Shown here: piece by piece, positions 1,215 through 18,835 of the stretch
Position numbering within the stretch: the first letter of the stretch is position 1
Layout: every line of letters begins with the position of its first letter
Assembly (NCBI GenBank): GCA_034722955.1
Contig: JAYEOM010000005.1
Location: forward strand, 1 to 18,835
Reading direction: 5' to 3'
Source of the DNA: Campylobacterota bacterium
GTDB taxonomy: Bacteria > Campylobacterota > Campylobacteria > Campylobacterales > Sulfurovaceae
DNA: 18,835 nt
Position numbers and translations under genes: made by a program
The notes under the pieces: model-generated
What the model was told of the DNA's origin: nothing
The model's input: only the letters and a program-made list of their open reading frames with translations
Databases searched by the model: none

Positions 1215-1243
1215 ATTTTAGCGAAAAATACCTTATTTTGCAA
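1215..1243 (-). promoter_or_regulatory. Sigma70 promoter of tRNA-Arg
   Basis: Minus strand reads TTGCAA (1243-1238), a 17-nt spacer, then TAAAAT (1220-1215), followed by the GC-rich discriminator GCGACC typical of stable-RNA promoters. The -35 lies inside the last codons of ung. Confidence 0.65.
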
Positions 1244-2797: not shown

Positions 2798-2809
2798 TCT
2801 ATTATCTCC

Positions 2810-3370
2810 TTATGGGTGTTTTATCTTTATTTTGCTATTTAATGCCCAAGCGATCACCAGTACCATAGCTGCGATCACATAAGGATTTGGGATCAATGCG
2901 TAACTATATATGAGATAGAGTATCCATAGCAGTATAGCACCTAGTGGGGTAGGTACACCCTCAAAATAGTTGGCTACCTCTCCTGCATCTACTTTGAGAT
3001 TGAACTCGATCAAGCGTCTCAATCCACTGATGATATAAAAGATAAAGATAACCCCGACTATTATCTCCCCTATGCCACCAAGCCCACTGCCCCCTCGCAG
3101 TGCATAAAAGAGCAGAAAAGATGGCATAACAACAAAAGAGATGAAGTCTGCAAAACTATCAAGCTGTACCCCAAACTCTGTAGATAGATTATACTTTCTA
3201 GCCACCTTGCCATCTGCTATATCCAATGCACCTGCAATCCAAGCCAATACAATAGCAACAAAAAAGTTACCCTGCACGATAAAATAGATAGCGATAACAC
3301 CTGCTACAATATTGCCAAATGATATAATATTTGCAGCATTAAAACGGTTGTTCTTCTCAAATAGTCTCAT
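2810..3370 (-). CDS. CDP-alcohol phosphatidyltransferase, PssA (phosphatidylserine synthase type II)-like
   Basis: Signature DxxDGxxAR-x8-GxxxDxxxD (DIADGKVARKYNLSTEFGVQLDSFAD), a PssA-like FEGVPTP motif and hydrophobic helices. ATG at 3370 is preferred over GTG at 3376 because of the AGGA SD spacing. Confidence 0.82.
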   Translation of the reverse strand: MRLFEKNNRFNAANIISFGNIVAGVIAIYFIVQGNFFVAIVLAWIAGALDIADGKVARKYNLSTEFGVQLDSFADFISFVVMPSFLLFYALRGGSGLGGIGEIIVGVIFIFYIISGLRRLIEFNLKVDAGEVANYFEGVPTPLGAILLWILYLIYSYALIPNPYVIAAMVLVIAWALNSKIKIKHP

Positions 3371-3388
3371 AAGCACACTTCCTAAAAA

Positions 3389-3402
3389 ATTATACTATTT
3401 TA
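3389..3402 (-). promoter_or_regulatory. Candidate -10 element(s) for the pssA-like/mqnP/ung unit
   Basis: Minus strand reads ggTAAAATagTATAAT, giving two adjacent -10-like hexamers (3402-3397 and 3394-3389) just upstream of the SD. Confidence 0.45.
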
Positions 3403-3434
3403 CCTTTTTTTAGTATCAATCTTCTTTATTATTG

Positions 3435-3440
3435 TATGAT
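3435..3440 (+). promoter_or_regulatory. Candidate -10 element for miaA (leaderless start)
   Basis: TATGAT is followed by 6 nt and then the ATG at 3447. No SD-like purine tract lies upstream. Confidence 0.45.
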
Positions 3441-3446
3441 TGCATT

Positions 3447-4364
3447 ATGAATGATCAGATAAGACAGATTGCCATTATCGGACCTACAGCATCGGGCAAG
3501 AGTGGATTGGCGGTGAAGATAGCAAAGAGTTACAGTGCCATCATCCTATCTCTTGATTCACTCTCTATCTACAAAGAGATAGATATCGCCTCTGCCAAGC
3601 CAACCAAGCAAGATAGAGATGGTATCTCTCACTATGGTATAGATGTTATCTACCCAGATGAATCTTTTGATGTTACTATGTTCTCAAAACTTTATCTACA
3701 AGCTTACGCAAAAGCAGAGAGCCAGAGAAAAAACTTGATCATAGTAGGTGGTACTGGATTTTATCTCAAGAGTTTAATGGATGGTATTTCGACTCTGCCG
3801 CTGCTGAGTAGATCCCAAAAAGATAGAGTAGATACCATGATGGCAAATCCCCCAAAAGCGTATGAGATGCTCCTGACACTTGATCCCCTCTATATGAGAA
3901 ACATAGCCTCTAGTGACAGATATCGTATAGAGAAGGCGTTGAGTATACTGTTTGCTACAGAGCAGATACCATCTCAATACTTTGGAGCTCATCCACCTAT
4001 ACCGACTATAGCAGGTCAACTTCCAATCTATCGTATAGTTACAGATAGAGGAGTGTTGAGAAGTCGTATTGCTGCAAGAACCAAGCAGATGATCAAGATG
4101 GGTTTGATCGATGAGATAAGCTATCTCGAACAAAAATATAGTCGCAAACCTAACTGTATGAAAGCTATAGGGGTTAAAGAGACTCTTGATTTTTTAGATG
4201 GGAGATACGATAGAGCCGGTCTGGAAGAGAAGATTATAACCAATACAGCACGACTTGCCAAGAGACAAACTACATTTAATAGATCACAATTTAAAAGTCA
4301 TATATCACTTGAGATTGAAACTTTAGAGAAGAAGATTATAGAAGATATAGAGAAGAGACCTTAA
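3447..4364 (+). CDS. miaA: tRNA (adenosine(37)-N6)-dimethylallyltransferase
   Basis: P-loop GPTASGKS, SLDSLSIYKEIDIASAKP, VGGTGFY, KAIGVKE and LAKRQTTF. ATG 3447 is chosen over TTG 3432 because the P-loop normally sits about 10 residues from the N-terminus. Confidence 0.95.
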   Translation: MNDQIRQIAIIGPTASGKSGLAVKIAKSYSAIILSLDSLSIYKEIDIASAKPTKQDRDGISHYGIDVIYPDESFDVTMFSKLYLQAYAKAESQRKNLIIVGGTGFYLKSLMDGISTLPLLSRSQKDRVDTMMANPPKAYEMLLTLDPLYMRNIASSDRYRIEKALSILFATEQIPSQYFGAHPPIPTIAGQLPIYRIVTDRGVLRSRIAARTKQMIKMGLIDEISYLEQKYSRKPNCMKAIGVKETLDFLDGRYDRAGLEEKIITNTARLAKRQTTFNRSQFKSHISLEIETLEKKIIEDIEKRP

Positions 4365-4392: not shown

Positions 4393-5883
4393 TCAATACC
4401 CGCTTGCACTCACCATATAATATATATAAGAGATAAGTGGTTGCATTATAAAGACTGAACCAACTGTCGCAACAACTGCTATACCAACTATAGTCATCAG
4501 AGGTTTAGACAAGTTATAGATAGTTGTGCCATCATTATCTTCTGGCGGAAGAAGGAACATATAGACAATCAGCTTTAGATAGTAATAGGCAGCTATAGCT
4601 GAATTGAGTCCCATTACAACTGCCAACCAGATGTATCCTGCATCTACAGCAGCACTCATGATATATATCTTACCCCAGAATACCGAGAAGGGAGGTACGC
4701 CTGCTAGGGATAGCATAAAGAGTGCCATCACTACAGCTGCCATCGGCATGAGCTTGATAAGACCTGCAAACTTTTCATAAGGGTGGTCATATCTCTCATG
4801 GAAGATTCTGTTTTTATGGCGACTGATCCAGAGCATAGTAAAGGCTCCTAGATTCGTAAACATAAAGAGAGCATAATATAGGAATATCCCTGTATTACCC
4901 TTTGTAGTATCTAGTGCCAATGCTGCCATGACAAATCCAGCATGTGAGATTGAACTATATGCTAGCATTCTCTTGACATCCTCTTGTACCAATGCCATCA
5001 TATTGGCTAGTGTCATTGTGGCTACTGCTAGTATCAATATAGCTATTCTCACCCACTCGATACCTAGATCAATATACATACCAAAGATACGCATAGCAAC
5101 AACAAATGCTGCTACTTTTGGCACAACAGACATATATCCGGCAAGTGGTGCACTTGCACCCTCATAGACATCCGGTGTCCAAGTGTGGAATGGAAATAGC
5201 GAGAGTTTGAAAGCAAAAGCAGCCAACAGAAGAACTGAGCCACCAAGAATTGCGATCATAATACCAGGCTCATTGATACGACTCTGAAGTACATCTGCAA
5301 CTTGATATAGCTCAACACTACCGGTCAATGCATAGATAACAGCAGAACCCATCACATAGAAACCAGCTGCCAAAGCACCCATCGTAAAGTACTTGACTGC
5401 TGCCTCATATGAGTTGCTTCTATTGTGCAGTGCAATAAGCGTATAGAGTGAAAGCGATGCTGTCTCTATCCCTACAAATATGAGGATAAGATTGTCACTT
5501 GCAACCATAAACTGGAAGCCTGCTATCATGAATAGAAAGAGTGCAAAGAACTCAGGATAAGAGTATTCATGGAAACGCTTTGATGTCAATGCCAACGGGA
5601 TGAAGAGCATAGAGGCAGCCAAAATCAACAACTGTGATACGATCGCTATACCGTCAACCAACATAACATCAAAAAAACCTCTCTCATTGATATTGAGTCC
5701 CAGTACAGAACCAAAATCAACAAAAAGAATCAAGATTGTCAACATTACATAAAGAGATTTATGTAATCCCCCTTTAATCAGATCAATGATCAAAATGATC
5801 AATCCACCAACAATTGCTATAAGCATTGGCGCTAGTGTAATCATATTTAGGGAAGCTAAACTTATACTGATAGGCTCTAACAT
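4393..5883 (-). CDS. nuoN: NADH-quinone oxidoreductase subunit N
   Basis: 496-aa antiporter-like subunit with EAAVKYF, FKLSLFPFHTWTPDVYEGA, KRMLAYSSISHAG and SLAGVPP. It is the last gene of the operon. Confidence 0.96.
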   Translation of the reverse strand: MLEPISISLASLNMITLAPMLIAIVGGLIILIIDLIKGGLHKSLYVMLTILILFVDFGSVLGLNINERGFFDVMLVDGIAIVSQLLILAASMLFIPLALTSKRFHEYSYPEFFALFLFMIAGFQFMVASDNLILIFVGIETASLSLYTLIALHNRSNSYEAAVKYFTMGALAAGFYVMGSAVIYALTGSVELYQVADVLQSRINEPGIMIAILGGSVLLLAAFAFKLSLFPFHTWTPDVYEGASAPLAGYMSVVPKVAAFVVAMRIFGMYIDLGIEWVRIAILILAVATMTLANMMALVQEDVKRMLAYSSISHAGFVMAALALDTTKGNTGIFLYYALFMFTNLGAFTMLWISRHKNRIFHERYDHPYEKFAGLIKLMPMAAVVMALFMLSLAGVPPFSVFWGKIYIMSAAVDAGYIWLAVVMGLNSAIAAYYYLKLIVYMFLLPPEDNDGTTIYNLSKPLMTIVGIAVVATVGSVFIMQPLISYIYYMVSASGY

Positions 5884-7409
5884 TATTTTGCCTCCTTTGT
5901 TATAGTACTTACTATGATTCTCTCTTTGGCTTCAGGAGTGATCGCCTTCTCTTCCATGAAACTCAACAAAGCCTTGACACTGTTATCTATGGGGGCAAGT
6001 ACAGGCTTTGGATAGACTCCCAGCCAGATAACTATTGCAACCAAAGGTATCAGTGATGCCATCTCTCTACCATCAAGGTCTTTGAGATTTTTATTTGCCT
6101 CATTTGTTACTGGACCAAAGAAACTTTTTTTGTATAATGACAACATATATATAGCACCAAGAACGATCGTTGTACCTGCTAGGATCGTACCGATCACAGA
6201 GACCTTGTAGAATCCAAGAAGAACAAGGAACTCCCCTACAAAACCAATAGTCAATGGTAACCCGACAGATGCCATCAACATTATTCCATAGATGACAGCA
6301 TACTTAGGCATAACAGCGGCTAAACCACCAAACTCACTCATGAGCTTAGTGTGCCGGCGATCATAAATAACACCAACCAGCATAAACAGTGCACCCGAGA
6401 CAATCCCGTGAGAGAGCATCAAGAAGACAGAACCACTAATACCCTCAGCATTCATCGCAAATGTACCCAATACTATAACACCCATATGTGATACTGAAGA
6501 GTAAGCTATCACCTGTTTCATATCCTCTTGAGCATAAGCTATCATAGCTGTATATATGATCATAATGATCGATATCACAGCGATAGGCATGATCATCATG
6601 ACAGAGGCATCCGGGAAGAGTGGCAATGAAAATCTGACAAACCCATAAGTTCCCATCTTAAGCAGAACTGCTGCTAGGATTACTGAACCTATTGTTGGTG
6701 CCTGACCGTGAGCATATGGCAACCAAGTATGGAAAGGAAACATCGGTACCTTGATGGCAAATCCGACAAAAAAGGCTATAAAGAGCCATAACTGATAATT
6801 GACCGGCAGTACCAACGCATACCAATCCGTAATAGAGAAACTCCATATACCTGAGATACTGTGGTAGAGATATGCCATAAAGAGCATACCTACCAACATG
6901 ATCAATGACCCTGTAAATGTATATAGGAAAAACTTGATTGAAGCATATATCCTGAGAGGTCCGCCCCAAGCACCAATGATATATAGCATAGGCACCAGTG
7001 ATAGTTCCCAAAATAGATAAAAGACGATTGCATCCAAAGCAACAAAAACACCTATCATTGTCATCTCAAGAAAGAGAAGCGATATGATCATATTTTTGAT
7101 ATCTTTTTCGGTACTCATTCCAACCATTCCAACAAGAGTCATCAATGCAGCCATCACTACAATAAAGAGGCTGATTCCATCAACACCCAAATAGTAGTTG
7201 ATACCAAAGTCAGGAACCAAAGGCACTAACTCAACAAACTGCATACCGGCATTGCTGCCATCAAAACTCATCCAAAGCCAAAGAGCCAACAGGAGTTCTA
7301 CAGAAGCTACACTGATACCATAAACTCTCGCACTATCTTTATCGACTACAAAACCCAGCAGTGCTGCAATTGCCGGGAAAAATACTAAAACACTTAATAT
7401 ATTATCCAT
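5883..7409 (-). CDS. nuoM: NADH-quinone oxidoreductase subunit M
   Basis: 508 aa with LGVDGISL, FYLFWE, AIKVPMFPFHTWLPYAHGQAP, LLKMGTYG and IAYSSVSHMG. Its stop overlaps the nuoN ATG (TAATG). Confidence 0.96.
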   Translation of the reverse strand: MDNILSVLVFFPAIAALLGFVVDKDSARVYGISVASVELLLALWLWMSFDGSNAGMQFVELVPLVPDFGINYYLGVDGISLFIVVMAALMTLVGMVGMSTEKDIKNMIISLLFLEMTMIGVFVALDAIVFYLFWELSLVPMLYIIGAWGGPLRIYASIKFFLYTFTGSLIMLVGMLFMAYLYHSISGIWSFSITDWYALVLPVNYQLWLFIAFFVGFAIKVPMFPFHTWLPYAHGQAPTIGSVILAAVLLKMGTYGFVRFSLPLFPDASVMMIMPIAVISIIMIIYTAMIAYAQEDMKQVIAYSSVSHMGVIVLGTFAMNAEGISGSVFLMLSHGIVSGALFMLVGVIYDRRHTKLMSEFGGLAAVMPKYAVIYGIMLMASVGLPLTIGFVGEFLVLLGFYKVSVIGTILAGTTIVLGAIYMLSLYKKSFFGPVTNEANKNLKDLDGREMASLIPLVAIVIWLGVYPKPVLAPIDNSVKALLSFMEEKAITPEAKERIIVSTITKEAK

Positions 7410-7420
7410 CTACCTGCTCC

Positions 7421-9328
7421 TTAACCTATTACCGATGAGATTGCTGCTGCAACCAGTAATGCCAATAAACCTACACTCATCCAATTCAAATAGTTGGATA
7501 GGTTACCTGTATTCATTTTTCTCGTATAATCACCACCTCTGTAGAAGAGGTTGGCAATACCATCAACTGTAGCATCGACAATTTTCATATCAACCGATTT
7601 CCACATCATTTGAGATAGTAGGTAGTATGGCTTAGAGATAAACTCTGCATAAAATTGTGGAATATAGTATTGATTCTTCAAGAGTTTAAAGGCAAAGCTG
7701 TTTTCAACTTTCTCATCTCTTTTAAGTCCTTTACCATATTTTTTCCAAGCTAAAACAATACCACCAACTGCAAATATAAGTACCAATGCACCTAGATAAA
7801 TCGCTAAGTGATGCGTATGATCACTCATTACATAGTCTGGCATAACCGTTGAACTTGTAACGAATTCTTGAAATGACCCTCTAAAGAATCCAGCGATAAT
7901 CGCCAAAAGTGCCAATGGAGACATAGCAATAAGTACAAACTTGTACATCTCATGCGGATGAATATCAAATGCTTTATATCTCTCATCACCATCAAATGTC
8001 AAGAATACTTGTCTAAAGCTATAGAATGCTGTCATACCAGCTGTTACTACAAGCATCGCCCATAAAAAGAGTGTACCTTCGTTGAACGCTGTCTCAATAA
8101 TCGCATCCTTAGAGAAGAAGCCTGCAAATGGAGGAATACCTGCCAAAGCGATAGAGGCGATACCCATATAGAGATAAGTTCCTCTCATCACCTTTTTAAG
8201 TCCACCCATCTTGAAGATATCAAGCTCATCATGCATAGCATGCATAACATTACCAGCACCCAAAAAGAGTAACGCTTTAAAGAATGCGTGAGCTGCAAGG
8301 TGGAATAGTGCTATCCAATAAGCACCAAGTCCAGCTGCTGCAAACATATACCCTAACTGTGAAAGTGTAGAGTACGCAATAATTCTTTTAAGGTCTCGCT
8401 CAACTAAAGCCATAGATGCCGCAAAGAATGCTACAAATGTACCAAGAGCTGCAATAAAGAAGCTAACATCAGAAACTTCAGGCATAGAGTAGAGTGGATT
8501 GGCACGAATCACGAGGAAGACCCCCGCTGTTACCATAGTAGCTGCGTGAATCAGTGCAGAGACTGGTGTAGGACCCTCCATGGCATCTGTAAGCCAAGTG
8601 TGTAGTGGAAACTGTGCTGATTTACCCATAGCACCAATAAATAGTGCCAAAGCAGCGATAGTCAAAACAGTCTCATCAAGATTTGGCAGTGCTGCAAAAA
8701 CTACATCATACTGAAGTGAACCTGTATTCCAATAGAGAACAAAGATACCGATCAACATAGCAAGATCAGCAATACGGTTTACAATAAATGCTTCATTTGC
8801 TGCCCAAGATGGAGAGATGGATGGATTGACATCCGGAGACTCATCTTTTTTGTGATACCAAAAACCGATAAGCAACCAAGAACAGACACCAACGCCTTCC
8901 CAGCCGATAAATAGCCCAACAAAGTTATCACTCATAACTAGTACCATCATCGAGAAGACAAATGCTGATAGGTATGAGAAGAATCTGTTGAAACTCTTGT
9001 CGTGATCCATATAGCCTATAGAGTAGACATGAACAACTGTTGATACCAAAGTAACAACAACCATCATAGTAACACTAATATGATCAACAACAAATCCAAA
9101 AGGAATTGCCAAATCACCTGCACTAATCCAATCCATCATCGTCACATGAATACCGTGACCTGTCTGAACAACATAAGCTGCAAGAATAGCAGATGCTATA
9201 AATGAGGTAGCTAATAGAAGTGAAGCAATCACCCCTACAAAAGTCTTTCTAGGACTCATCCCAAAAAGAGCAGAAAAGAGAGAACCCACTAACGGTGCAA
9301 AAAGTGCAATATATACAAACTTTTCCAT
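7421..9328 (-). CDS. nuoL: NADH-quinone oxidoreductase subunit L
   Basis: 635 aa with FIGWEGVG, GKSAQFPLHTWLTDAMEGPTPVSALIHAATMV, AYSTLSQLGYM, HAFFKALLFL and a C-terminal transverse-helix region. Confidence 0.97.
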   Translation of the reverse strand: MEKFVYIALFAPLVGSLFSALFGMSPRKTFVGVIASLLLATSFIASAILAAYVVQTGHGIHVTMMDWISAGDLAIPFGFVVDHISVTMMVVVTLVSTVVHVYSIGYMDHDKSFNRFFSYLSAFVFSMMVLVMSDNFVGLFIGWEGVGVCSWLLIGFWYHKKDESPDVNPSISPSWAANEAFIVNRIADLAMLIGIFVLYWNTGSLQYDVVFAALPNLDETVLTIAALALFIGAMGKSAQFPLHTWLTDAMEGPTPVSALIHAATMVTAGVFLVIRANPLYSMPEVSDVSFFIAALGTFVAFFAASMALVERDLKRIIAYSTLSQLGYMFAAAGLGAYWIALFHLAAHAFFKALLFLGAGNVMHAMHDELDIFKMGGLKKVMRGTYLYMGIASIALAGIPPFAGFFSKDAIIETAFNEGTLFLWAMLVVTAGMTAFYSFRQVFLTFDGDERYKAFDIHPHEMYKFVLIAMSPLALLAIIAGFFRGSFQEFVTSSTVMPDYVMSDHTHHLAIYLGALVLIFAVGGIVLAWKKYGKGLKRDEKVENSFAFKLLKNQYYIPQFYAEFISKPYYLLSQMMWKSVDMKIVDATVDGIANLFYRGGDYTRKMNTGNLSNYLNWMSVGLLALLVAAAISSVIG

Positions 9329-9330
9329 TA

Positions 9331-9633
9331 CTACCCTTTCATTGACGCTAGATCATCGAGATCCAGTGTTCCGTGTTTTTTATAGAGGACGATCAAAAGT
9401 CCTAAGCCTACGGCAACTTCACTTGCTGCTACAGCGATAATAAAGAAAGCAAACATTTGCCCTGTTAAATCACCATAAAAGTGTGAAGCAGCAGCAAATG
9501 CGATATTTGCAGCATTTAACATTATCTCTGTTGCAAAAAATAGCATCAAAAGATTTTTTCTTCTCACTACGCCAACAAGACCGATCGCAAAAAGCAATCC
9601 TGACAGTATGAGATAGTCATTTAGTTCTATCAT
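9331..9633 (-). CDS. nuoK: NADH-quinone oxidoreductase subunit K
   Basis: 100 aa, three TM helices, with RRKN, EIMLNA and AASEVAVGL. Confidence 0.96.
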   Translation of the reverse strand: MIELNDYLILSGLLFAIGLVGVVRRKNLLMLFFATEIMLNAANIAFAAASHFYGDLTGQMFAFFIIAVAASEVAVGLGLLIVLYKKHGTLDLDDLASMKG

Positions 9634-10196
9634 TTTTCATCCTCCTGCGAAATAACTTTTGGCATCTCTGTATCATCATCTGTTGTAAGACTCTGATCCA
9701 TCTTTTTCCCTGCCAAGATAATCCCTGCAATCATTGCTACCAATAGCATCAGTGCCGCTACTTCAAACGGAACAAGGTATTTTGTGAAAAGTACCATACC
9801 TACTGCTTGAGCATTGCCTACACCCTCAAGAGTAGGAAAGATTGCTTGAATATTGTCACTCATTATCGGTGCAGAGAAGATTATGACTAGCAATAGTGCT
9901 ATTGAACCTCCAAGCAGGAAGATGAGAGTGGCATTTGGATTTTTCTCTTTGATATCTTTGCTGGCATCAAAGAACATCATAGCAAAGGCATAGAGTGCCA
10001 TAACAGCACCAACATAGACGATCAACTGTACCGCTCCCAAGAAATCTGCTCCTAGTAGGAAGAAAAACCCTGAGATCAATACCATCCCTGCAGCTAGTGC
10101 AGTCATAGCGTACAATACATTATTGCTTAGAACTGTGACTAAAAAGAGTCCTATAGTTAAGCCTGAAAATAGATAAAAAGCTATTTGTTCATACAT
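9630..10196 (-). CDS. nuoJ: NADH-quinone oxidoreductase subunit J
   Basis: 188 aa with ADFLGAVQLIVYVGAV and LFTKYLVPFEVAALMLLVAMIAGI. ATGA overlap with nuoK. Confidence 0.95.
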   Translation of the reverse strand: MYEQIAFYLFSGLTIGLFLVTVLSNNVLYAMTALAAGMVLISGFFFLLGADFLGAVQLIVYVGAVMALYAFAMMFFDASKDIKEKNPNATLIFLLGGSIALLLVIIFSAPIMSDNIQAIFPTLEGVGNAQAVGMVLFTKYLVPFEVAALMLLVAMIAGIILAGKKMDQSLTTDDDTEMPKVISQEDEK

Positions 10197-10207: not shown

Positions 10208-10831
10208 TTAGTACGCGAGTGGCGTTTTTTTGATATTTGCATCAGCATTTGGCGTAACCGCACCAAATCCATCATACTCTTGTTGTTGCTTGAGTGCATC
10301 AATCGGAGTTAGCATATCTTCAAAAAGTGAAAAGCTAGCTCTCTGCTCTGATGCAGTCTCATAGCGTGGACCATGTACGATAGCCAACTCTGGACACACT
10401 TCAGCACAATATCCGCAAAAGATGCATCGTCCAAAGTTGATCGTATACTCAGTGACCTCTTTTCTCTGGTTATCATCATATCTTGTATCCATCTTGATAC
10501 AGTCTGAGATACAGATCTTTTCACAGAGACCACAACCGATACAGCGATAGTGTCCACTCTCAAGAAGTCTCAACATATCATGAATAGCTCTATACCTTGG
10601 AGAGATAGGTAACTTTTCAAATGGGTATTTGATAGTAGCCATCTCTCCTCTGAATAGTGCATTGATCATCTCTCTCATAGTGACATAAAGACCAACGAAT
10701 AGTTCACCTTTGAATGTACGCTTGACAACTCGTTCAAATCTACCCAAACCACTCTTGGGGCTTGGTTCGAAATCGACCATTACATAAGGCTGATTTCCTA
10801 CATTTCTGTTTTTAAATTGCTCTAAACTCAT
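10208..10831 (-). CDS. nuoI: NADH-quinone oxidoreductase subunit I (2x[4Fe-4S])
   Basis: TIKYPFEK..SPRYRA and two ferredoxin motifs, CIGCGLCEKIC and CIFCGYCAEVCP. Confidence 0.96.
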   Translation of the reverse strand: MSLEQFKNRNVGNQPYVMVDFEPSPKSGLGRFERVVKRTFKGELFVGLYVTMREMINALFRGEMATIKYPFEKLPISPRYRAIHDMLRLLESGHYRCIGCGLCEKICISDCIKMDTRYDDNQRKEVTEYTINFGRCIFCGYCAEVCPELAIVHGPRYETASEQRASFSLFEDMLTPIDALKQQQEYDGFGAVTPNADANIKKTPLAY

Positions 10832-10840
10832 CTCTACTCC

Positions 10841-11869
10841 TTACACCATCATCACTAAGCCGGTGATAACAATATTTATGACGGCTAACGGCATCAATAC
10901 CTTCCAACAAAGCCACATCAATTGATCGGGTCTGATATGAGGCCAAGAGGCTCTTACCCACAACATCAAGAAGAAGACAAATGATATCTTCAATATTATC
11001 ATAAACCATCCTGCAATAAATCCAAGATCGTTATATCCACCCATGAACATAACAGCAGCCAAAACAGATACTGTAATCATATTGGCATACTCTCCGATAA
11101 AGAACATACCCCAACGCATACCAGAGTACTCAGTTGCATATCCGGATATAATCTCTGCCTCATGCTCAAGGAGATCAAACGGTGTTCTGTTTGTTTCAGC
11201 AAAGCCTGCAATCAGGAAGAGTATAAAAGCTACAGGTTGCTGCCACATCATCCAGGAGCTAAATCCACCTGTCTGATAGTTATTGAAGTCAACCAATGAT
11301 AGAGAGCCTACCAACATGATAGGTGCCAAGATCGAGAGTCCCGTAACCACCTCATAACTGAGAAACTGGATCGCTGTTCTTGCTGAACCTATAATTCCCC
11401 ATTTGTTTGCTTGTGCCATACCTGCCAACAGGGGACCATAAAGTCCTGCTGCCATCATACCAAGGACAAAGAGTACACCGATATTTATATCAGCGGCTAT
11501 TGAGGGTACAAAGGTGCCACCAAGAAGTGGTATCCACTCAGGTATAGTAAAGTCAGGGAAGACCGGAACAGCTGCCAATGCTATAAATGCAGTCGCCGCT
11601 GTAATAATAGGGGCTACCATAAATATAAGCCTATTGGCATGTTGCGGAATGATATCCTCTTTTGTAAAGAGTTTGATACCATCTGCTGCAATCTGCAGTA
11701 GACCATAAGGACCTACATGCATAGGACCTAGTCTTCGCTGCATAAATGCCAAAACTTTCCGTTCAATAAATGTACCAAATCCCGCTAGTGCCGAGACAAT
11801 TGCCAAGATAATGATCGCTTTTATGACCACTCCGGCACTGGTTACTTCAGGTAATACTGCTGCTTCCAT
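10841..11869 (-). CDS. nuoH: NADH-quinone oxidoreductase subunit H
   Basis: ERKVLAFMQRRLGP, QIAADGIKLFTKED, SYEV, AETNRTPFDL.E.EAE...GY.TEYSG and RPDQLM. Confidence 0.97.
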   Translation of the reverse strand: MEAAVLPEVTSAGVVIKAIIILAIVSALAGFGTFIERKVLAFMQRRLGPMHVGPYGLLQIAADGIKLFTKEDIIPQHANRLIFMVAPIITAATAFIALAAVPVFPDFTIPEWIPLLGGTFVPSIAADINIGVLFVLGMMAAGLYGPLLAGMAQANKWGIIGSARTAIQFLSYEVVTGLSILAPIMLVGSLSLVDFNNYQTGGFSSWMMWQQPVAFILFLIAGFAETNRTPFDLLEHEAEIISGYATEYSGMRWGMFFIGEYANMITVSVLAAVMFMGGYNDLGFIAGWFMIILKISFVFFLMLWVRASWPHIRPDQLMWLCWKVLMPLAVINIVITGLVMMV

Positions 11870-11871
11870 AT

Positions 11872-14328
11872 TTACACCTTTCTAATTGTTACATTTTTAA
11901 ATCTATCTCTGCCAAAGAGAGTATAGACACTGTCTGCACTTTTGAAATCAGGAACCTTGACAATGTCACCTTCCATTCTCTCATCTGCTACTACACTTAG
12001 CACCATCGTCTCCCCACCGAAATCAACCTCTACCTTCTCTCCAAGTGCTTCAGCTTTTGCTACACTTGCATAGATGGAGAAGCTCTCGAAGATTTGATGT
12101 GCTTTATCAGTAAAATCATTAAACTGTCTCTGTGGGTTGCATCGATAAGCTATTTCACCTTCAAGAGCAATACTCTCATCAAACCGTTTTGGTAAATTAT
12201 GAGCTGCTCGTTTACCTAAGTTTCTAAGAGGATAGCCTCTATTCTCTTCACCGCTGTTGGTATATCCATTAGGAAGATCATCAAACTCTATAGATTGGAA
12301 ACCTCTCTTATCTCCAAGCATGGCCGTCCACTGTATAGTCAACTCTCTGCCTAGCTTAAACTCTTTCATCAAGTCATTGAGTTCATACCCTTTGTACTCC
12401 AATGCAGCATTGGTAGGAGTTACGCGTTTGTTCATATTGGTGAGCGTACCCTCCTGCTGGTTCATAGCTGGCATATCAAGATCACCATCTCCCAAAGCAC
12501 TAAGTTTAAAGTCACCATTTTCATTGTAGCCTACCGTATACCCCTCTGCCTGCTCATCAAGATCACATATCAAAGCAACACCGAGTGAGTTTGTTTTTGG
12601 CGGAATCATAGCAACTTTCATACTACAGCTACTCTCAATCAATGAGACCAGCAGTGCCAAGTTTTCTGCTTTTGGATGGAAGTATAGATCTTCTCCGACG
12701 ATAAGAGAGAAGCTCTCTTTCTTCTTCATCATCTTTTCAAATGCAGCAGCGAAGTTTGTACTGCCGCCTAGCAGTTCTATTAGTGCATTTTCATCAACTT
12801 CGATCTCTTTTTCGACCATCTTAGGTACTTTTTTTGTAACTGTTTTCTCTTCGCCTGTCTCTGCATCAACTACTGTCTCTGTAACACTCTCCATAACCTT
12901 CTCTTTGACAACCTTCGTTCCCTTTGTATGAAAAGAGTCAATGTAAGCAACTGTATCTTCTGAAAGCTTCTCTCTATCTGCGAAGAGATCTAGTATGAGA
13001 TAGAGTGCCGCCTCTTCGAGACCGGGCTTATGGACAAAAGACTCTACGCTCTTGCCAAGATCTGTGATAACTGTGTCGGAGATTGGATGGAAATAGAGTC
13101 CTGCACCTTTATTCATCTTCTGTATATTGTTGAATGCATAACGAGCATTTGGATTGTCATTACGCAATGCAGCACCTACACTGATGACAAAGTCTGTCTT
13201 CATCACCTCCTTGAAGTCACTTCCGTAGAGCAGTTTTCCAGCAGGTTTGCCATAAGCTTTTAGGAATTTTTGGAAAGCAAATGCATCATCATTTACCAAT
13301 TTTACATCAAGCTTCTCTTTAAGTCTCTGAAGCATCAACGCCTCTTCATTACTGATAACAGAGTTGAACCTGATACTGTCTGCTTTCTTCAGTGCCTCTA
13401 CTGCTCTGCCGAATGCTTCACTATCTTTGGCTGCAACTCTATTTTCAAAGTCATAACCAAAACGACCAGAACCGCATAGTGAAACATAATTCCACTCATT
13501 TGTCACACGATAGATCTTTTCGGTAGAGTCCTCTATAGATGTCGGTTTAGTCTCATAATAGATTTGGCATCCGCTACTACAGTGTGCACAGGTTGCCGGT
13601 ACTCTTGTAAGATCCCAAGCATTGGTAGTGTAGACAAAGTCACGACTCACCAATGCCCCAACTGGACAAACAGCGATACACTCACCACAGTCACTACAGT
13701 TAGTTTCGCCTGTACCATTGCTAGGAACGATAACAGACTTTTGGAGTTTGTTCCACATAGCATAAGCATCTTTAGGCATCGTATCCTTAAGACCTTTATC
13801 TAGTGCTGCTCCACCTCTTGGACCTGTTTTGATCGCAGCATCTCCGATCATATCTTTACAGACTGTTGTACATCGTTCACACACGATACATAACCCTGGG
13901 TCATAGTGCAGAACACTACTCCAGTTTGTCGACTCTCTTTTGGTGTCAGGGATCATGTAGCTTTGCGAATCTACACCCATCTCTAGTGTATAGTTTTGCA
14001 ATTCACACTCACCACTCTGGTCGCAAACACCACACTGAAGCGGATGGTTGACATCATATACTTCCATAATAGCACGACGCTCTTCGAGAATCTCTTCAGT
14101 TGCAGTGGTGACATCCATGCCATCTTTTGCCTTAGCATTACATGCATATACCTTCTTGCCATCTGCCTCTACAAGACAGATACGGCAAGCTAGTGTTGGC
14201 GAACATCGGGCAAGGTAGCAGATAGCAGGAATAAATATATCATTTGCACGGGCAGCATTGAGAATATATTCACCCTCTTGGGTCTTATATTCAACACCAT
14301 CAATTTTGATTGTAATTTCGTTACTCAT
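11872..14328 (-). CDS. nuoG: NADH-quinone oxidoreductase subunit G, paralogue 2 (Campylobacter/Helicobacter-type)
   Basis: 818 aa. [2Fe-2S] motif IPAIC..ACRIC..AC; His-ligated NHPLQCGVCDQSGECELQ; CIVCERCTTVC and CSDCGECIAVCP; N7-type CAHCSSGC...C; degenerate molybdopterin-oxidoreductase-like C-terminal body. Confidence 0.92.
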   Translation of the reverse strand: MSNEITIKIDGVEYKTQEGEYILNAARANDIFIPAICYLARCSPTLACRICLVEADGKKVYACNAKAKDGMDVTTATEEILEERRAIMEVYDVNHPLQCGVCDQSGECELQNYTLEMGVDSQSYMIPDTKRESTNWSSVLHYDPGLCIVCERCTTVCKDMIGDAAIKTGPRGGAALDKGLKDTMPKDAYAMWNKLQKSVIVPSNGTGETNCSDCGECIAVCPVGALVSRDFVYTTNAWDLTRVPATCAHCSSGCQIYYETKPTSIEDSTEKIYRVTNEWNYVSLCGSGRFGYDFENRVAAKDSEAFGRAVEALKKADSIRFNSVISNEEALMLQRLKEKLDVKLVNDDAFAFQKFLKAYGKPAGKLLYGSDFKEVMKTDFVISVGAALRNDNPNARYAFNNIQKMNKGAGLYFHPISDTVITDLGKSVESFVHKPGLEEAALYLILDLFADREKLSEDTVAYIDSFHTKGTKVVKEKVMESVTETVVDAETGEEKTVTKKVPKMVEKEIEVDENALIELLGGSTNFAAAFEKMMKKKESFSLIVGEDLYFHPKAENLALLVSLIESSCSMKVAMIPPKTNSLGVALICDLDEQAEGYTVGYNENGDFKLSALGDGDLDMPAMNQQEGTLTNMNKRVTPTNAALEYKGYELNDLMKEFKLGRELTIQWTAMLGDKRGFQSIEFDDLPNGYTNSGEENRGYPLRNLGKRAAHNLPKRFDESIALEGEIAYRCNPQRQFNDFTDKAHQIFESFSIYASVAKAEALGEKVEVDFGGETMVLSVVADERMEGDIVKVPDFKSADSVYTLFGRDRFKNVTIRKV

Positions 14329-14329
14329 C

Positions 14330-16603
14330 TTAACTGTCCATTTTTTCTAATTTGGGTTGACTAAATCTGTAATAGGATACCGAAGCACTACTTAAGCCCA
14401 TATCGAAAGTGGGGTTAATCGCAACAGTTCCTTTCATCAATGTGTCAATCGTAAACACCCTTTGGTACTCAATACCATCAAGTATAAATTTTACTCTATC
14501 ACCTTCATTGAGTTTGGCGACTGTAGCAAACTGTGCTGAACCTCTCAATTTGGCATCGCTTTTCAACTGTTTTGTTCTGTTTGTGAAGGCTGAAAATTGA
14601 TTGCCTTCATTGCTCTGGTATAATACTATACCATCATATGTCGGCAGTGTAGAGATTGCATCAGGCTCTCCATCTTTTTGAGTTGCTCTCTCTGCAAGAA
14701 GATATCCGCGATGCTCCTCTCCCTGAATATCATAATAGTCCGGTAACTTATCAAACTCTACATTTTCAAAGCCTTTATCACTTGGCAGATACTCTGTATA
14801 GCCGATTGTATACCTCTCTTTGAGCCCTAGTGCATTCATGATATCATTGAGAACATATCCTCCATAAGGCAGAGCGACATGAGTTGGTACTACACGCTTA
14901 TCTAGAGAGGTAAATGTCCCCTCTTGTTGATTGAGTGCAGGCATATCCAAATCACCATCACCTAGTGAACTCAAGATAAAGTCTCCTGAAGTATTGTAGC
15001 CTATGGTGTATCCTGTAGCCTCTTTATCAAGGTCGCAAATCAATGAGACACCCAATGCATTAGTAGCAGGAGGAGTCACCAAAACATCAAAGTCTGAATA
15101 TAGCTCTATCAAACCCAATAGTTTTGCAATATTTTCTGCCTTTGGATGATGATATAGATCGGCACCAACAACAAGTGTAAAGCCTGACTTTTTCAGAAGA
15201 GACTTTGCAAGAGTATCAAACTCCTCCTCACCGATATTGCTCTCTGCACTTAGATTTCCAACATCCAAGTCATTCAGGTAGTTGCTTATCTGGATAGGTA
15301 TATCTCTACCCTCAAGTAGTGTTTTTGCCAAGAGTGCTGCAACACCCTCTTCGCTACCCACTTCATACTTCATAAACTGTGTTACAATATTTTGGATGGA
15401 GGTATCTTCTATAGGATGCATATAAGCGACACGAGCCCTATGTCTCTTGCTCGCCATATTGAGATGGTATTTAACCATAGGAGCATCATCATTGATCCGT
15501 GTTCCAAAAACTACAACTCCTCTGGATTGACTCAAATTTTCAAGATTGCTTCGATAGAGTGTAGCTCCTGTCACAGAGCTAAAGGCTTGCATAAAACGCT
15601 GATAACCCTCTGCCTCATCACAGACCAGTTTTACACCACTCTTCTCTTTAAATCTCTGGAGGATTAGAGCCTCTTCATTTGTGATAGTTGCGGTAAACTT
15701 GATACTCTCTGCTTGACGAAAAGCATCTAGTGTCTTAGCAAAGGATTCAGGTTCTTTCAATACACCAGAGTTTTCATAATCAAATCCAAATCTACCTGCA
15801 CCGCAAAGTGAACTAAACTCATAGTTATTGGTCACTCTATAGATCTTTGATTCTGGCTCTCCAATCCCTACTGCTTTGACTTCGTAACTCATTTGACATG
15901 CAGCACTACAGTGACTGCAAGATGCAGGGATCTTCTCAAGCTCCCAAGCATTTGTACTATATTTAAAGTCCGTGCTGACTAACGCCCCTACAGGACAGAC
16001 TGCCATACACTCTCCACAGTTACTGCAATCCTCATCAGGCTTGGTATTGATGATCGTAGAGTTATATCCACCTACAGAGATAGCTAGGGCTTCATCACCT
16101 ACTATCTCATTGCAGACATGGACACACTTCTCACACATGATGCAGAGTGCAGGATCATAAGAGATAAACCCCCAGTTTTCTACTGGTCTATGCTGATCTC
16201 TTGCCGTAAAGGACTGTTCGGAGATATCAAACTCCATCGTTTTATTCTGCAGATCACACTCACCGCTTTTGTCACAAACACCACACTCTAAAGGGTGATT
16301 TACATCATAGAGTTTCATAATGTTTTGACGCTGCTTAAAAAGCTCTTCATTATCTGTCGTGATAACTGCACCATCAGTAGCTCTCTCTTGGCATGATAGG
16401 ATCATGCCATCAACACCTTCGACATTGACAACACACATTCTGCATGAAGCTATGGGTTCTACTTTGGTGAGATAACACATAGTTGGGATATAGATATCAT
16501 TTGCACGAGCTACCTGCAAGATCGTTTGACCAAACTCTGCCTGACACTCTCTGCCATCAATAACAACAGTGATGGCTCTGGATTCATTTTTTCTTGCTGT
16601 CAT
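14330..16603 (-). CDS. nuoG: NADH-quinone oxidoreductase subunit G, paralogue 1 (NuoG/SfrA-like partner of the upstream flavoprotein)
   Basis: 757 aa from ATG 16603 (MTARKNES...), 1 nt after the upstream TAG. It has the same Cys motifs: IPTMC..SCRMC..SC, NHPLECGVCDKSGECDLQ, CIMCEKCVHVC, CSNCGECMAVCP and CSHCSAAC...C. The ORF-track start at 16660 overlaps the upstream gene and is unlikely. Confidence 0.88.
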   Translation of the reverse strand: MTARKNESRAITVVIDGRECQAEFGQTILQVARANDIYIPTMCYLTKVEPIASCRMCVVNVEGVDGMILSCQERATDGAVITTDNEELFKQRQNIMKLYDVNHPLECGVCDKSGECDLQNKTMEFDISEQSFTARDQHRPVENWGFISYDPALCIMCEKCVHVCNEIVGDEALAISVGGYNSTIINTKPDEDCSNCGECMAVCPVGALVSTDFKYSTNAWELEKIPASCSHCSAACQMSYEVKAVGIGEPESKIYRVTNNYEFSSLCGAGRFGFDYENSGVLKEPESFAKTLDAFRQAESIKFTATITNEEALILQRFKEKSGVKLVCDEAEGYQRFMQAFSSVTGATLYRSNLENLSQSRGVVVFGTRINDDAPMVKYHLNMASKRHRARVAYMHPIEDTSIQNIVTQFMKYEVGSEEGVAALLAKTLLEGRDIPIQISNYLNDLDVGNLSAESNIGEEEFDTLAKSLLKKSGFTLVVGADLYHHPKAENIAKLLGLIELYSDFDVLVTPPATNALGVSLICDLDKEATGYTIGYNTSGDFILSSLGDGDLDMPALNQQEGTFTSLDKRVVPTHVALPYGGYVLNDIMNALGLKERYTIGYTEYLPSDKGFENVEFDKLPDYYDIQGEEHRGYLLAERATQKDGEPDAISTLPTYDGIVLYQSNEGNQFSAFTNRTKQLKSDAKLRGSAQFATVAKLNEGDRVKFILDGIEYQRVFTIDTLMKGTVAINPTFDMGLSSASVSYYRFSQPKLEKMDS

Positions 16604-16604
16604 G

Positions 16605-18614
16605 CTACACCGCCACCATAGAGATATAGTAGCATCGCATACAGCGTTCTGCTTCTGCAAGTGCTTCTTCCCCGGTAAATCCGAGATTGACCTCTATATT
16701 ATTATCTTTTCTCTCATCAACACCTAGTTTTTCACTCTCACTGCGAGGCAAACCTGGCATCCAGCCTGTCACTTTCTCTTTTTTATCATAAACTTTAAGT
16801 GCTGAGAGATGATCTTCCATGATCTCATCATCAGTTAGAGAAATTTTTTCATCATAGATATAACGGCTGATAACAGATGCTGCTCTTTTTGCTTGACCTA
16901 CAGCATTTACGATAGTCATTGGACCATATTCACAATCTCCAGCTGCAAATAGCCCCGGACGATTTGTTATGTAGTCTTTTCCATTTGTCATAAGTGTATT
17001 CCAAGAGGTTAACTTGATATCCCACTCTTCAGGTATCAGCTGTAGATCTGCGGCTTGAGATACAGCTGGGATCAGATAGTCACATTCGATTTCGAAGTCT
17101 TCACCCTCTATCTTTATCAATTGTGCTCTACCGCCATCTGGATCAGGAACTAGTTCAAAACGATTTACCAGAAGTTTTACCAGTTGATTTTCCTCATCAT
17201 AAATCCGTTCGATAGCAGTGTGAAAGATAAATTCAACACCCTCTTCTACCGCCTCATGGTACTCTTCATAGGTTGTATTTCGGATGATGGTCTTCTCATC
17301 TCTTCGGTAGATCATTATAACTTTTTTTGCCCCCTCACGGATAGAGCATCTTACGACATCCATCGAGGTAAATCCTCCGCCGACACACACTACTACTTTG
17401 TCCTTGAGTTCGTTGGATGCAGGTGAACCTATACCATATTTTGTCCATAGATTCACCTTGTCTAGCATCTCAATCGCACTCCAGTATCCATTCATATCAA
17501 GGCGTTCATTCTCTGCACGCACCTTTTTGGATAGTCTAGCACCAAATGCCAAAAGTGTAGCATCATACTCTGCATCAAGCTCTTTGAGGCGCGCTGCATC
17601 AACACGATGATTACTATAGACATCAACAGCCTCTAGAGAAGTAACCAGCTCTATGTCTCTATCGTATTTATCAATAGGCATACGATACTCAGGTACACCC
17701 ACAGCAACCTCTCCACCCAGTACAGGAAGCTCTTCAAAGATATCTACCTTGATCCCTTCAACTCCTAGATAGTATGCTGCCGTCAATCCTGCAGGACCTG
17801 CACCGATAATCGCTACTTTTTTGCCATCATCTCTGAGTGGTTTAGGGGTTTGGGGATGTTGCCAAGGGAGTTGATGATCTGTCTCATAGTCAGCACCAAG
17901 TCTCTTGAGTTCCATGATAGAGATCGGTTCATCCAGATTTGTTCTTCTGCAAGCATCTTCACATGGATGAGGGCAGACACGGCCACAAGTATGTGCAAGT
18001 GGCATTGTCTGGCGTGTTGCAGAGAGAGAGTCTGCAAACTCCATATCACGAACACCCTCAATATAGGCAGGGATATCAACATGTGCGGGACAGACATCAC
18101 TACAGGGAGCTGTAACTTTCGCTATATAGCTAATATCTTGATGGTAATGCTTTGAAGGTATTTGTCTCTCTATCGCTTTGTCAAATTGATCTTTGTAGTG
18201 CTCCATAAGATCGAGTATAGGCTTAGGAACCGTTCTGCCTATTTCACACTTGGAGGTGAGCATCATAGTTTCACTAATCTCTTTGAGATGATCTATATCT
18301 GATTGACTCCCTTCACCTCTAGCTATCTTGTCAAGAAGGTCATATAGAATTCTACCGCCCCATCTACCTGGTGCACAACGACCGCAAGCTTCTGAATATA
18401 CTTGATATTGTGCAGCATACTCTGTTGCTAATCTAATGGCATCAATATCCTCTTGGAAAATAGCTACTCCATCCCAACCGATAAAAGCTTTTGAGCGTCT
18501 ATCTGCTGTATACTCTTCTGGCAGTCTAAATGCCGACTTACTCCACTCATCAGATGATTTGCCACGATTGTCGATAAATTCATCTTTCCAAGTTGAGAAC
18601 AGAACCGCTGACAT
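16605..18614 (-). CDS. FAD/NAD(P)H-dependent Fe-S oxidoreductase, GltD-family/SfrB-like, with an N-terminal NuoF 4Fe-4S-like domain
   Basis: 669 aa. SEACGRCAPGRWG...SKCEIG (NuoF N3-like); APCSDVCP and CGRVCPHPCEDACRR (Fer4_20); FAD motif AIIGAGPAG; GVPEYR; second Rossmann fold VGGGFTSMD...YRR; LFAAGD...GP..IV.AV; C-terminal EAERCMRC. The N-terminus (FSTW...IDNR...FRLP...AFIGWDG) resembles Geobacter SfrB as recalled from memory. Confidence 0.88.
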   Translation of the reverse strand: MSAVLFSTWKDEFIDNRGKSSDEWSKSAFRLPEEYTADRRSKAFIGWDGVAIFQEDIDAIRLATEYAAQYQVYSEACGRCAPGRWGGRILYDLLDKIARGEGSQSDIDHLKEISETMMLTSKCEIGRTVPKPILDLMEHYKDQFDKAIERQIPSKHYHQDISYIAKVTAPCSDVCPAHVDIPAYIEGVRDMEFADSLSATRQTMPLAHTCGRVCPHPCEDACRRTNLDEPISIMELKRLGADYETDHQLPWQHPQTPKPLRDDGKKVAIIGAGPAGLTAAYYLGVEGIKVDIFEELPVLGGEVAVGVPEYRMPIDKYDRDIELVTSLEAVDVYSNHRVDAARLKELDAEYDATLLAFGARLSKKVRAENERLDMNGYWSAIEMLDKVNLWTKYGIGSPASNELKDKVVVCVGGGFTSMDVVRCSIREGAKKVIMIYRRDEKTIIRNTTYEEYHEAVEEGVEFIFHTAIERIYDEENQLVKLLVNRFELVPDPDGGRAQLIKIEGEDFEIECDYLIPAVSQAADLQLIPEEWDIKLTSWNTLMTNGKDYITNRPGLFAAGDCEYGPMTIVNAVGQAKRAASVISRYIYDEKISLTDDEIMEDHLSALKVYDKKEKVTGWMPGLPRSESEKLGVDERKDNNIEVNLGFTGEEALAEAERCMRCYYISMVAV

Positions 18615-18835
18615 TATTTGGCCTTCGCTCTAGATTTACTTCTTGCTCTTGATCTAGTAGCTCTCTTTGGAGTAGTCTTTGGCGGTACTTTTTTATCATC
18701 CTCTGTACTGCTGCTTGGAGGTGTAGATTCAGCCTCTTTCTCTGCAGCAGCTTTAGCGTCGGCTTCGGCTTTCTCTGCTGCAGCTTTTGCCTCTGCCTCC
18801 TCCTTCTCTTTGAGAGCTATCTCCTCTGCTGCCTT
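18614..18835 (-). CDS. 3' end of an upstream nuo-operon gene (low-complexity Ala/Glu/Lys then basic tail); identity not determinable, position fits the epsilon-type NuoF-replacement gene
   Basis: Not in the ORF track. The open frame reads ...KAAEEIALKEKEEAEAKAAAEKAEADAKAAAEKEAESTPPSSSTEDDKKVPPKTTPKRATRSRARSKSRAKAK-TAA, and the TAA overlaps the next ATG (TAATG). Confidence 0.75.
   Translation of the reverse strand, partial: KAAEEIALKEKEEAEAKAAAEKAEADAKAAAEKEAESTPPSSSTEDDKKVPPKTTPKRATRSRARSKSRAKAK

Follow-up and report, generated by a model that had tools for sequence, protein, structure and literature searches.

Introduction

The closest described counterparts of the locus examined here are the complex I (nuo) operons of Sulfurimonas and Sulfurovum, for which the same layout has been described (10.1101/717884). 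The two NuoG copies are credited there to Weerakoon and Olson 2008, and a single bifurcating complex is put forward that reduces nicotinamide adenine dinucleotide (phosphate), NAD(P)+, and ferredoxin by reverse electron transport. In the complex I of Campylobacter and Helicobacter, NuoX and NuoY are described as flavodoxin-linked replacements of NuoE and NuoF (PMC6682613, PMC4178425), and HP1265 is termed 'chain F' (PMC3561388). SfrAB has also been described (PMC7483475, PMC9888536), and Nautilia is reported to be without nuoE, nuoF and nuoG (PMC2628731). We analysed the first 18,835 nucleotides, hereafter the window, of contig JAYEOM010000005.1 (C5) from a Campylobacterota bacterium of the Sulfurovaceae (assembly GCA_034722955.1; genome G000), which carry a nuo operon from the 3′ end of nuoX onwards, with a flavoprotein gene and two nuoG genes, nuoG-1 and nuoG-2.

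This operon type is real, conserved and already published, and its layout is ordinary for CO2-fixing Campylobacterota. A preliminary description of the window had anticipated similar layouts in related Campylobacterota, as is the case in Sulfurimonas and Sulfurovum, and had placed the novelty in the function. The latter was overstated, since reverse transport through this complex had been put forward in 2019 as a source of NAD(P)H and of reduced ferredoxin (10.1101/717884). What is new is a map of three separately inherited modules, a link of one of them to the reductive tricarboxylic acid (rTCA) cycle, relatives with a single NuoG, and the identity and independence of NuoY; these do not settle the mechanism. 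The swappable-input model, the link between NuoY and NuoG-1, and a structure were in no paper found in the literature covered (subscription journals lay outside the coverage).

Three separately inherited modules

The input genes and their sub-parts in the window are as follows, all on the minus strand (−).

18614–18835 (−): 3′ tail of nuoX, rich in Ala, Glu and Lys; the gene continues to C5:19351 across a gap of Ns, and codons 1–74 are the NuoX domain
16605–18614 (−): iron–sulfur (Fe–S) flavoprotein of 669 residues, in which a GltD-like domain for flavin adenine dinucleotide (FAD) and NADP(H) is joined to a NuoF-type N3 cluster domain (Pfam NADH_4Fe-4S, Fer4_20 and Pyr_redox_2)
18177–18398 (−): N3-like cluster domain of the flavoprotein (residues 73–146), with three Cys only (C77, C80 and C123) and Gly83 at the usual third position
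14330–16603 (−): NuoG-1, 757 residues, ancestral-like, the putative partner of the flavoprotein (open reading frame, profile match, locus survey and model)
15764–16579 (−): Fe–S half of NuoG-1 (residues 9–280), with N1b, the His-ligated N5, two [4Fe–4S] clusters (N4 and one extra) and N7
15077–15529 (−): NuoG-1 segment homologous to NuoY, first of two, containing the acidic motif DxGYLSxES..GEEE (NuoY profile, E = 1.3e-34)
14342–14683 (−): second NuoY-homologous segment of NuoG-1, the C-terminal barrel domain (NuoY profile, E = 6.5e-13)
11872–14328 (−): NuoG-2, 818 residues, orthologue of the single NuoG of Campylobacter and Helicobacter (open reading frame, profile match and locus survey)
13729–13827 (−): NuoG-2-specific basic insertion (residues 168–200) in the two-cluster domain (alignment of 60 NuoG-2)
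12739–12933 (−): Lys/Glu/Val-rich insertion of NuoG-2 (residues 466–530), missing in NuoG-1 as well as in some NuoG-2 proteins

We surveyed a phylum sample of 151 genomes, of which 121 match NuoG-2 and 24 have the flavoprotein. A first set of 61 loci (60 chosen across families and that of G000) comprises 23 loci that read nuoX–flavoprotein–nuoG-1–nuoG-2, 35 that read nuoX–short protein–nuoG and three that read nuoX–nuoG. In a second set of 40 further loci, chosen from the family of G000 and from family f6, there are 24 with the flavoprotein and NuoG-1, 12 with the short protein within the operon and four with the short protein alone. Full NuoG-1 directly follows the flavoprotein in 47/47 flavoprotein loci (23/23 and 24/24), all inside the nuo operon, and neither a full NuoG-1 without the flavoprotein nor the reverse was found among the 101 loci. 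This is the synteny check that the preliminary description had called for, and the co-occurrence of nuoG-1 with the flavoprotein, which it proposed to test, held. The 41 genomes of G000's family contain a NuoG-1-type frame in 38 cases, two short ones in G225 and none in two. Family f6, which we take to be Arcobacteraceae (and f4 Nautiliaceae), has full NuoG-1 in 24 of 71 genomes, the short protein in 45 and neither in two; contig ends cut three of these 24 full-NuoG-1 cases, and the check for the flavoprotein covered 11 of the 24.

NuoX goes with NuoG-2 and not with NuoY: it is found in 61/61 loci of the first set and in all four genomes that have NuoG-2 without NuoY, the short protein; among 25 genomes with NuoY and without NuoG-2, it occurs only as a 42-residue remnant in one (the lack of NuoG-2 in G154 was judged from its locus only). 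NuoG-2 is the only Fe–S NuoG in 38/61 loci, and thus NuoG-2 must dock too. A break of the operon falls precisely between nuoG-1 and nuoG-2 in genus g44, where nuoG-2 remains beside nuoH. Three modules can be separated. Module 1 consists of the flavoprotein and the Fe–S half of NuoG-1, which are lost together; module 2 consists of NuoX, NuoG-2 and the membrane arm; and module 3 comprises the C-terminal NuoG-1 domains, whose stand-alone survivor is NuoY. Taken jointly, the gene layout, the motifs, the co-inheritance and the NuoY homology are established with near certainty. This map shows which subunits to tag or deplete.

Two genomes depart from these layouts. G225 (L173 and L174) has two nuo operons with NuoY but no flavoprotein in an otherwise dual-layout family; because a gene beside them is most similar to that of family f4, the bin may be mixed. 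In L086 (G039), nuoG is in two open reading frames (305 and 510 residues) and NuoY is missing.

NuoY is a cut-down NuoG-1

NuoY has 230–343 residues and carries the database names hypothetical protein, NADH dehydrogenase and subunit F. All 35 NuoY sequences score higher against the NuoG-1 profile (53–208 bits) than against that of NuoG-2 (at most 69 bits), with matches to about residues 340–510 and 635–750 of NuoG-1. NuoY and NuoG-1 group against NuoG-2 at 100/100 in the tree, and the NuoY model, with a predicted local distance difference test (pLDDT) score of 95, matches domains of molybdoenzymes of the molybdenum bis(pyranopterin guanine dinucleotide) (Mo-bisPGD) family and of NuoG. In 35/38 single-NuoG loci, its gene lies where nuoG-1 would be, flanked by nuoX and nuoG. 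NuoY has no Pfam family match; 20/35 match NCBIfam PRK08493 (E up to 0.01), and an ESM Atlas cluster with NuoY is auto-named 'chain G-like protein', so that the likeness to NuoG was hinted in annotation. As judged from these comparisons, NuoY is a truncated NuoG-1 without Fe–S clusters and not a NuoF. Equating NuoY here with Cj1574c and HP1265 rests on gene position and length. A single NuoY clade appears in 0% of 200 bootstrap trees, which suggests that NuoY may have arisen several times, but the approximately unbiased (AU) test gave p = 0.197 on 24 of the 33 rows, with the long branches among the nine rows left out.

NuoY persists in 20/27 genomes without a NuoG-2 match, away from nuo genes. 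It is also retained by two genomes that have no nuoH match at all, and four f6 loci keep it although the operon to either side has been deleted. It is missing in G098, G062, G039 and G058, which retain nuoX and nuoG. The losses are independent, with NuoY but no NuoG-2 in 25 genomes and NuoG-2 but no NuoY in four. Since each occurs without the other, and NuoY even without this complex I, NuoY has its own job. Orphan NuoY is no more relaxed than operon NuoY, with ratios of nonsynonymous to synonymous substitution (dN/dS) of 0.35–0.62 (six pairs) and 0.44–0.54 (six pairs), respectively; genes neighbouring NuoY have values of about 0.1–0.2. An apparent NuoY–NuoG fusion (1090-residue frame, G198 and G182) is actually two separate open reading frames. 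In f4 (L222–L227), the orphan NuoY gene lies approximately 10 nt after a gene that we take to be hemN-like in at least 5/6 genomes, far from nuo genes, which may be a partner lead or a chance relocation. Cj1574c is reported to be essential, unlike the nuo genes, and NuoY to bind FAD. NuoY (Cj1574c/HP1265) is recast here as a protein that outlasts complex I, and its real partner is probably other than assumed.

The flavoprotein and its relatives outside the phylum

In the N3-like site of the flavoprotein, C77, C80 and G83 are present in 45/46 orthologues and C123 in 46/46. Eight Cys of the GltD domain, K237, R311 and the YRR motif are invariant in 46/46. The best solved relatives are the large subunits of Stn and Nfn-Bfu (E = 2e-73 to 1e-68), with NfnB close behind (4e-67), and K237 and R311 align to K170 and R239 of StnC. 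The GltD-like domain of StnC is described as non-bifurcating, with Lys170 where NfnB has Glu (PMC10482914). The Glu at the FAD-proximal cluster that marks NfnAB (NfnSL) is replaced by K237 in 46/46 flavoproteins. No small NfnA/NfnS subunit lies between nuoD and nuoH, the remaining genome not having been searched for one, and the operon has no HydBC-type partner of the kind found in the StnAB/HydBC bifurcating module with flavin mononucleotide (FMN). These motifs suggest that the flavoprotein combines a non-bifurcating FAD with a site for NADP(H). It likely prefers NADP(H) and very likely binds NuoG-1. A separate protein, P0046 (962 residues), is 51% identical to the flavoprotein over residues 155–668 and has approximately 300 extra residues in its N-terminal part.

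Full-length relatives outside Campylobacterota are 31–39% identical to the flavoprotein, and at least three occur among the matches listed (80 loci, contig scan). One of them, in L091 (4492–15632), stands before the single NuoG of a Syntrophobacterales nuo operon. L091 and 17 loci found with its NuoG make up 18 outside loci, of which 10 read nuoD–flavoprotein–NuoG–nuoH without nuoX, so that the pair is the only input module. The single NuoG of these operons scores 278–319 bits against the NuoG-1 profile and 191–234 bits against that of NuoG-2, and the NuoG of L091 lacks both Cys42 and the insertion of NuoG-2. A NuoG-1-like protein can thus be the only NuoG of an operon. The preliminary description had proposed an NAD(P)H-linked form built from the flavoprotein and NuoG-1, with which the NADP(H)-type motifs and the role of the pair's relatives as sole input module agree. 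No description of the operons with the flavoprotein and one NuoG (L091, L251–L264) was found in the literature searched; they offer a simpler model enzyme for NADP(H)-linked complex I.

Two proposed input modules on one membrane arm

NuoG-1-like proteins are the sole NuoG in the outside operons and NuoG-2 is the sole NuoG in heterotrophs, and therefore each type can dock. We tentatively propose, as a possibility that falls short of probable, that the two input modules alternate at one NuoC/D/I site on a single membrane arm. The arm (NuoA–D and NuoH–N) would serve both in turn. Module 1 would link it to NADP(H), with the hydride exchanged at the non-bifurcating FAD and a path through the two GltD-type [4Fe–4S] clusters, the three-Cys N3-like cluster and N1b, N4 and N5 of NuoG-1, followed by NuoI, NuoB and menaquinone. 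Module 2 (NuoX and NuoG-2) would link the arm to ferredoxin or flavodoxin. In this rTCA autotroph, both modules would run backwards on the proton motive force to give NADPH and a low-potential carrier. The C-terminal domains of NuoG-1 would have a third job, independent of complex I, which survives as NuoY.

The assignment of NuoG-2 to flavodoxin or ferredoxin, already made in the preliminary description, is consistent with its association with NuoX and with its position as the only NuoG of Campylobacter/Helicobacter-type operons. The two distinct forms of complex I in that description fared less well: the modules are separate by inheritance, but NuoG-1 also carries NuoY, which has been placed in the flavodoxin route (PMC4178425), and the two forms are thus less cleanly separate than had been supposed.

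In a different arrangement, only NuoG-2 would dock, and the flavoprotein with NuoG-1 would be a co-transcribed, soluble or loosely attached NADP(H):ferredoxin/flavodoxin oxidoreductase similar to SfrAB. SfrAB was isolated as a soluble pair of GltD-like and NuoG-like subunits (PMC7483475), the outside locus L121 has the flavoprotein–NuoG pair without nuo genes, and the retained N7 of NuoG-1 could be a carrier site. However, in the most closely related outside operons the pair is the sole input module, lying between nuoD and nuoH, the pair lies within the nuo operon in 47/47 loci, and an FqrB-like enzyme for the same job is already present. We regard this arrangement as very unlikely.

Both NuoGs keep N1b, N5 and the two-cluster domain. 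The Fe–S Cys motifs of NuoG-1 are present in 22–23 of 23 sequences and its N7 Cys in 96–100% of 46, and its model (pLDDT 88) has a fold that matches the formate dehydrogenase (FDH) alpha subunit and NuoG. The N7 of NuoG-2 is missing in 12/46 dual operons and kept in 13/37 single-NuoG operons, which rules it out as an entry from NuoG-1. NuoG-2 carries an extra Cys42 in the N1b loop, and its basic insertion at residues 168–200 fills 30–31 of 31 columns in 60/60 NuoG-2, with a net charge of at least +2 in 38/46; an acidic carrier might dock there. Across 46 pairs of paralogues, 20/26 positions of the N5 motif are identical and the next strand has zero fixed differences, whereas the 74 sites of the N1b domain include six fixed differences and 17 sites conserved in NuoG-2 only. 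The two proteins thus appear to have the N5 exit motif in common and to diverge at the input face, a mild argument for swapping over one complex or a soluble pair.

The one complex in question, arranged as in the model of McNichol and Sievert or as a serial wire, would have NuoG-2 on NuoC/D/I and NuoG-1 alongside carrying the flavoprotein, so that NAD(P)+ and ferredoxin are reduced together. We consider it possible, if somewhat doubtful. The tight gene spacing is in keeping with it, as is the way in which NuoY occupies the NuoG-1 slot, flanked by nuoX and nuoG, in 35/38 single-NuoG loci. The nearly invariant N7 of NuoG-1 could be a branch point, and averaging two uphill steps would, by our own estimate, ease ferredoxin reduction. 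Against it, NuoY and NuoG-2 are lost independently (25 genomes with NuoY only and four with NuoG-2 only), which also weakens NuoY as proof that both NuoGs belong to one complex. In addition, the N5 region of NuoG-1 is undiverged, unlike the expectation for a new interface, the N7 of NuoG-2 is missing in 12/46 dual operons, and the FAD domain resembles that of non-bifurcating StnC in an operon without an NfnA/NfnS or HydBC-type partner. A complex prediction for NuoG-1 (residues 8–757) and NuoG-2 (residues 2–243), run on 46-row alignments without controls, scored 0.00 against a mark of 0.32 and is evidence neither way.

Several points weigh against alternating modules. Cluster binding alone may explain the shared N5 motif, and the NuoG residues facing NuoI were taken from complex I structures. 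The 10 outside loci are not independent, one relative having been used as the query. Both nuoG copies are reported to be expressed at a similar level, which fits one complex equally well (10.1101/717884), and a published model has Cj1574c (NuoY) passing flavodoxin electrons into complex I (PMC4178425), a role that speaks for the single complex. In G000, NuoY exists only inside NuoG-1, unlike the separate Cj1574c of that model.

Module 1 and CO2 fixation

In family f6, ATP citrate lyase is present in 24/24 genomes with full NuoG-1 and in 1/45 with NuoY, and a canonical-length NuoF (412–432 residues) in 1/24 and 44/45, respectively. All matches in the NuoF count were under the family cut-off; matches of 542–558 residues were excluded by length as another enzyme, a partial match in G207 was left out and the match in G185 was counted. 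In the phylum sample, 22/24 flavoprotein genomes have ATP citrate lyase, and G000 also encodes it. Module 1 probably serves reverse transport for CO2 fixation. The rTCA role suggested in the preliminary description is supported to the extent that the pair tracks ATP citrate lyase; the module is not limited to autotrophs.

The reservations here are of three kinds. The f6 contrasts are among kin, and of the within-genus contrasts, g46 and g47 agree and g56 does not. The flavoprotein genomes G008 and G046 (a Helicobacter) lack ATP citrate lyase, and the lyase occurs without the flavoprotein in 10 genomes (f4 6/6, f11 2/4, G225 and G188); the flavoprotein module is not restricted to autotrophs. 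Finally, a flavoprotein that we take to be FqrB-like is present in 147/151 genomes, including G000 (C61:851–1789), and NADPH is thus obtainable from flavodoxin without module 1. The same count rules out the FqrB-like enzyme as a replacement of module 1. In S. denitrificans, no ferredoxin:NADP+ reductase was found according to the available text (10.1101/717884).

Whatever its docking, which is a separate question, module 1 might run forwards only, oxidizing NADPH for respiration, with shared ancestry as the source of the autotrophy link. The occurrence of module 1 in two genomes that lack ATP citrate lyase, one of them a Helicobacter, would fit this, as would canonical NuoF in the place of module 1 in f6 and the names of the outside relatives (Syntrophorhabdaceae/Syntrophales). 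The f6 contrast of 24/24 with 1/45 and the two agreeing within-genus contrasts speak against forward operation alone, which we consider unlikely. The Helicobacter locus (L087, G046) has the full layout of flavoprotein and two NuoGs, and in the tree of the core subunits its branch lies amid NuoY lineages.

Operon integrity and neighbouring genes

The flavoprotein, nuoG-1, nuoG-2 and nuoH genes follow one another on the minus strand with gaps of 1, 1 and 2 nt, and all four are intact with zero internal stops. Near-zero spacing and intact genes had been noted in the preliminary description, but the −1 overlap given there belongs to the junction (TAATG) of the flavoprotein with the upstream nuoX, which it did not name. 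The spacing suggests that the four genes may be translationally coupled. Promoter- and terminator-like sites in 11000–18835 are at chance level (15 against 16.6 and 5 against 4.8, respectively). For nuoG-1 we took the ATG at 16603, preceded by GGCGGTG, as the start; the TTG start of the ORF finder (776 residues) overlaps the flavoprotein stop. Both NuoGs exceed the cut-off of PRK08493, the Campylobacterota-type NuoG family (894 and 1081 bits against 591). They are 39% identical in protein, and the DNA is alike in patches only (67–79%), which indicates an old duplication and not an assembly artefact. Each nuo gene is single-copy in G000. The operon has neither NuoE nor the FMN/NADH-binding NuoF of canonical NADH-type complex I: no TIGR01959 match was found in G000 at E = 1e-20, and the flavoprotein has the N3 domain only.

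nuoA–D lie upstream of the window at C5:22272–19361, and the contig carries the complete nuo operon. nuoX is interrupted at the window end by an assembly gap (C5:18836–18935) and was identified with PF16514 (E = 2.6e-40, C5:19130–19351), the NuoX family of the flavodoxin-type complex of Campylobacter and Helicobacter. Its long Ala/Glu/Lys-rich tail (window 18614–18835; C5:18836–19130) ends in a basic stretch. NuoX has 245 residues including the N gap, against 268–272 in two genus mates and a typical 76, and a weak TusA match (E = 0.0013). The remaining nuo genes in the window are the following.

10841–11869 (−): nuoH (PF00146, PRK06076)
10208–10831 (−): nuoI (PRK05888.2-3, above cut-off)
4393–10196 (−): nuoJ, K, L, M and N, the membrane arm (open reading frames, Pfam)

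Elsewhere in G000, a long-chain flavodoxin-like gene scores slightly below the cut-off, and C44:629–3230 holds distant nuoB, nuoD and nuoI homologues (27–43% identity), probably of a group 4 hydrogenase-type complex and a possible second ferredoxin route. The rest of the window contains a low-GC region (89–942; 0.32) with a HipA-like C-terminal piece (89–508) and a short upstream open reading frame (712–942), probably a fragmented HipA-type gene. Ordinary neighbours lie at 1233–4364: uracil-DNA glycosylase-like, UbiA-family prenyltransferase, CDP-alcohol phosphatidyltransferase and miaA genes.

Comparison with known systems

The flavodoxin-fed complex I of C. jejuni and H. pylori has the arm, NuoX (Cj1575c) and the NuoG-2 orthologue in common with this operon. 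There, the flavoprotein has been lost, NuoG-1 has lost its Fe–S half, and what remains is NuoY (Cj1574c/HP1265) alone. Unlike in those species, the NuoY profile matches only inside the two nuoG genes of G000, with neither a free NuoY nor a single NuoG.

The GltD-like pairs differ in their partners. StnC of the Sporomusa ovata Stn complex and NfnA of Nfn-Bfu (PDB 8oh5, 9bov, 9n5u) share with the flavoprotein a circularly permuted GltD-like FAD/NADP(H) domain, a Lys at the proximal cluster and the wiring to a NuoG-like chain. In Stn, however, the NuoG part is fused and StnAB/HydBC bifurcates, whereas here the N3 domain is all that the flavoprotein has of NuoF, and its gene lies in a nuo operon. 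Geobacter SfrAB, an NADPH:Fe(III) oxidoreductase, also pairs a GltD-like subunit with a NuoG-like one, a likeness drawn from its description; it is described as soluble and not in a nuo operon. No protein named SfrA or SfrB was among the relatives found in the homology searches. The Syntrophobacterales/Syntrophorhabdaceae-like operons share the flavoprotein architecture and, in the interval from nuoD to nuoH, its place directly ahead of a NuoG-1-like gene, but have neither NuoX nor a second NuoG.

The closest match is with S. denitrificans and Sulfurovum (Suden_1824, Suden_1823 and Suden_1822), where likewise the flavoprotein replaces NuoF and a short and a long NuoG are present. As there, nuoA–D, nuoX, the flavoprotein, the short nuoG, the long nuoG and nuoH–N form one cluster here, and only the long NuoG has insertions near residues 175–204 and 466–532. 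The available parts of the Sulfurimonas/Sulfurovum paper (10.1101/717884) draw no link between NuoY and the short NuoG. They propose an NfnB-like flavin in one bifurcating complex, whereas the present comparison points to a StnC-like flavin and slightly prefers two alternating modules.

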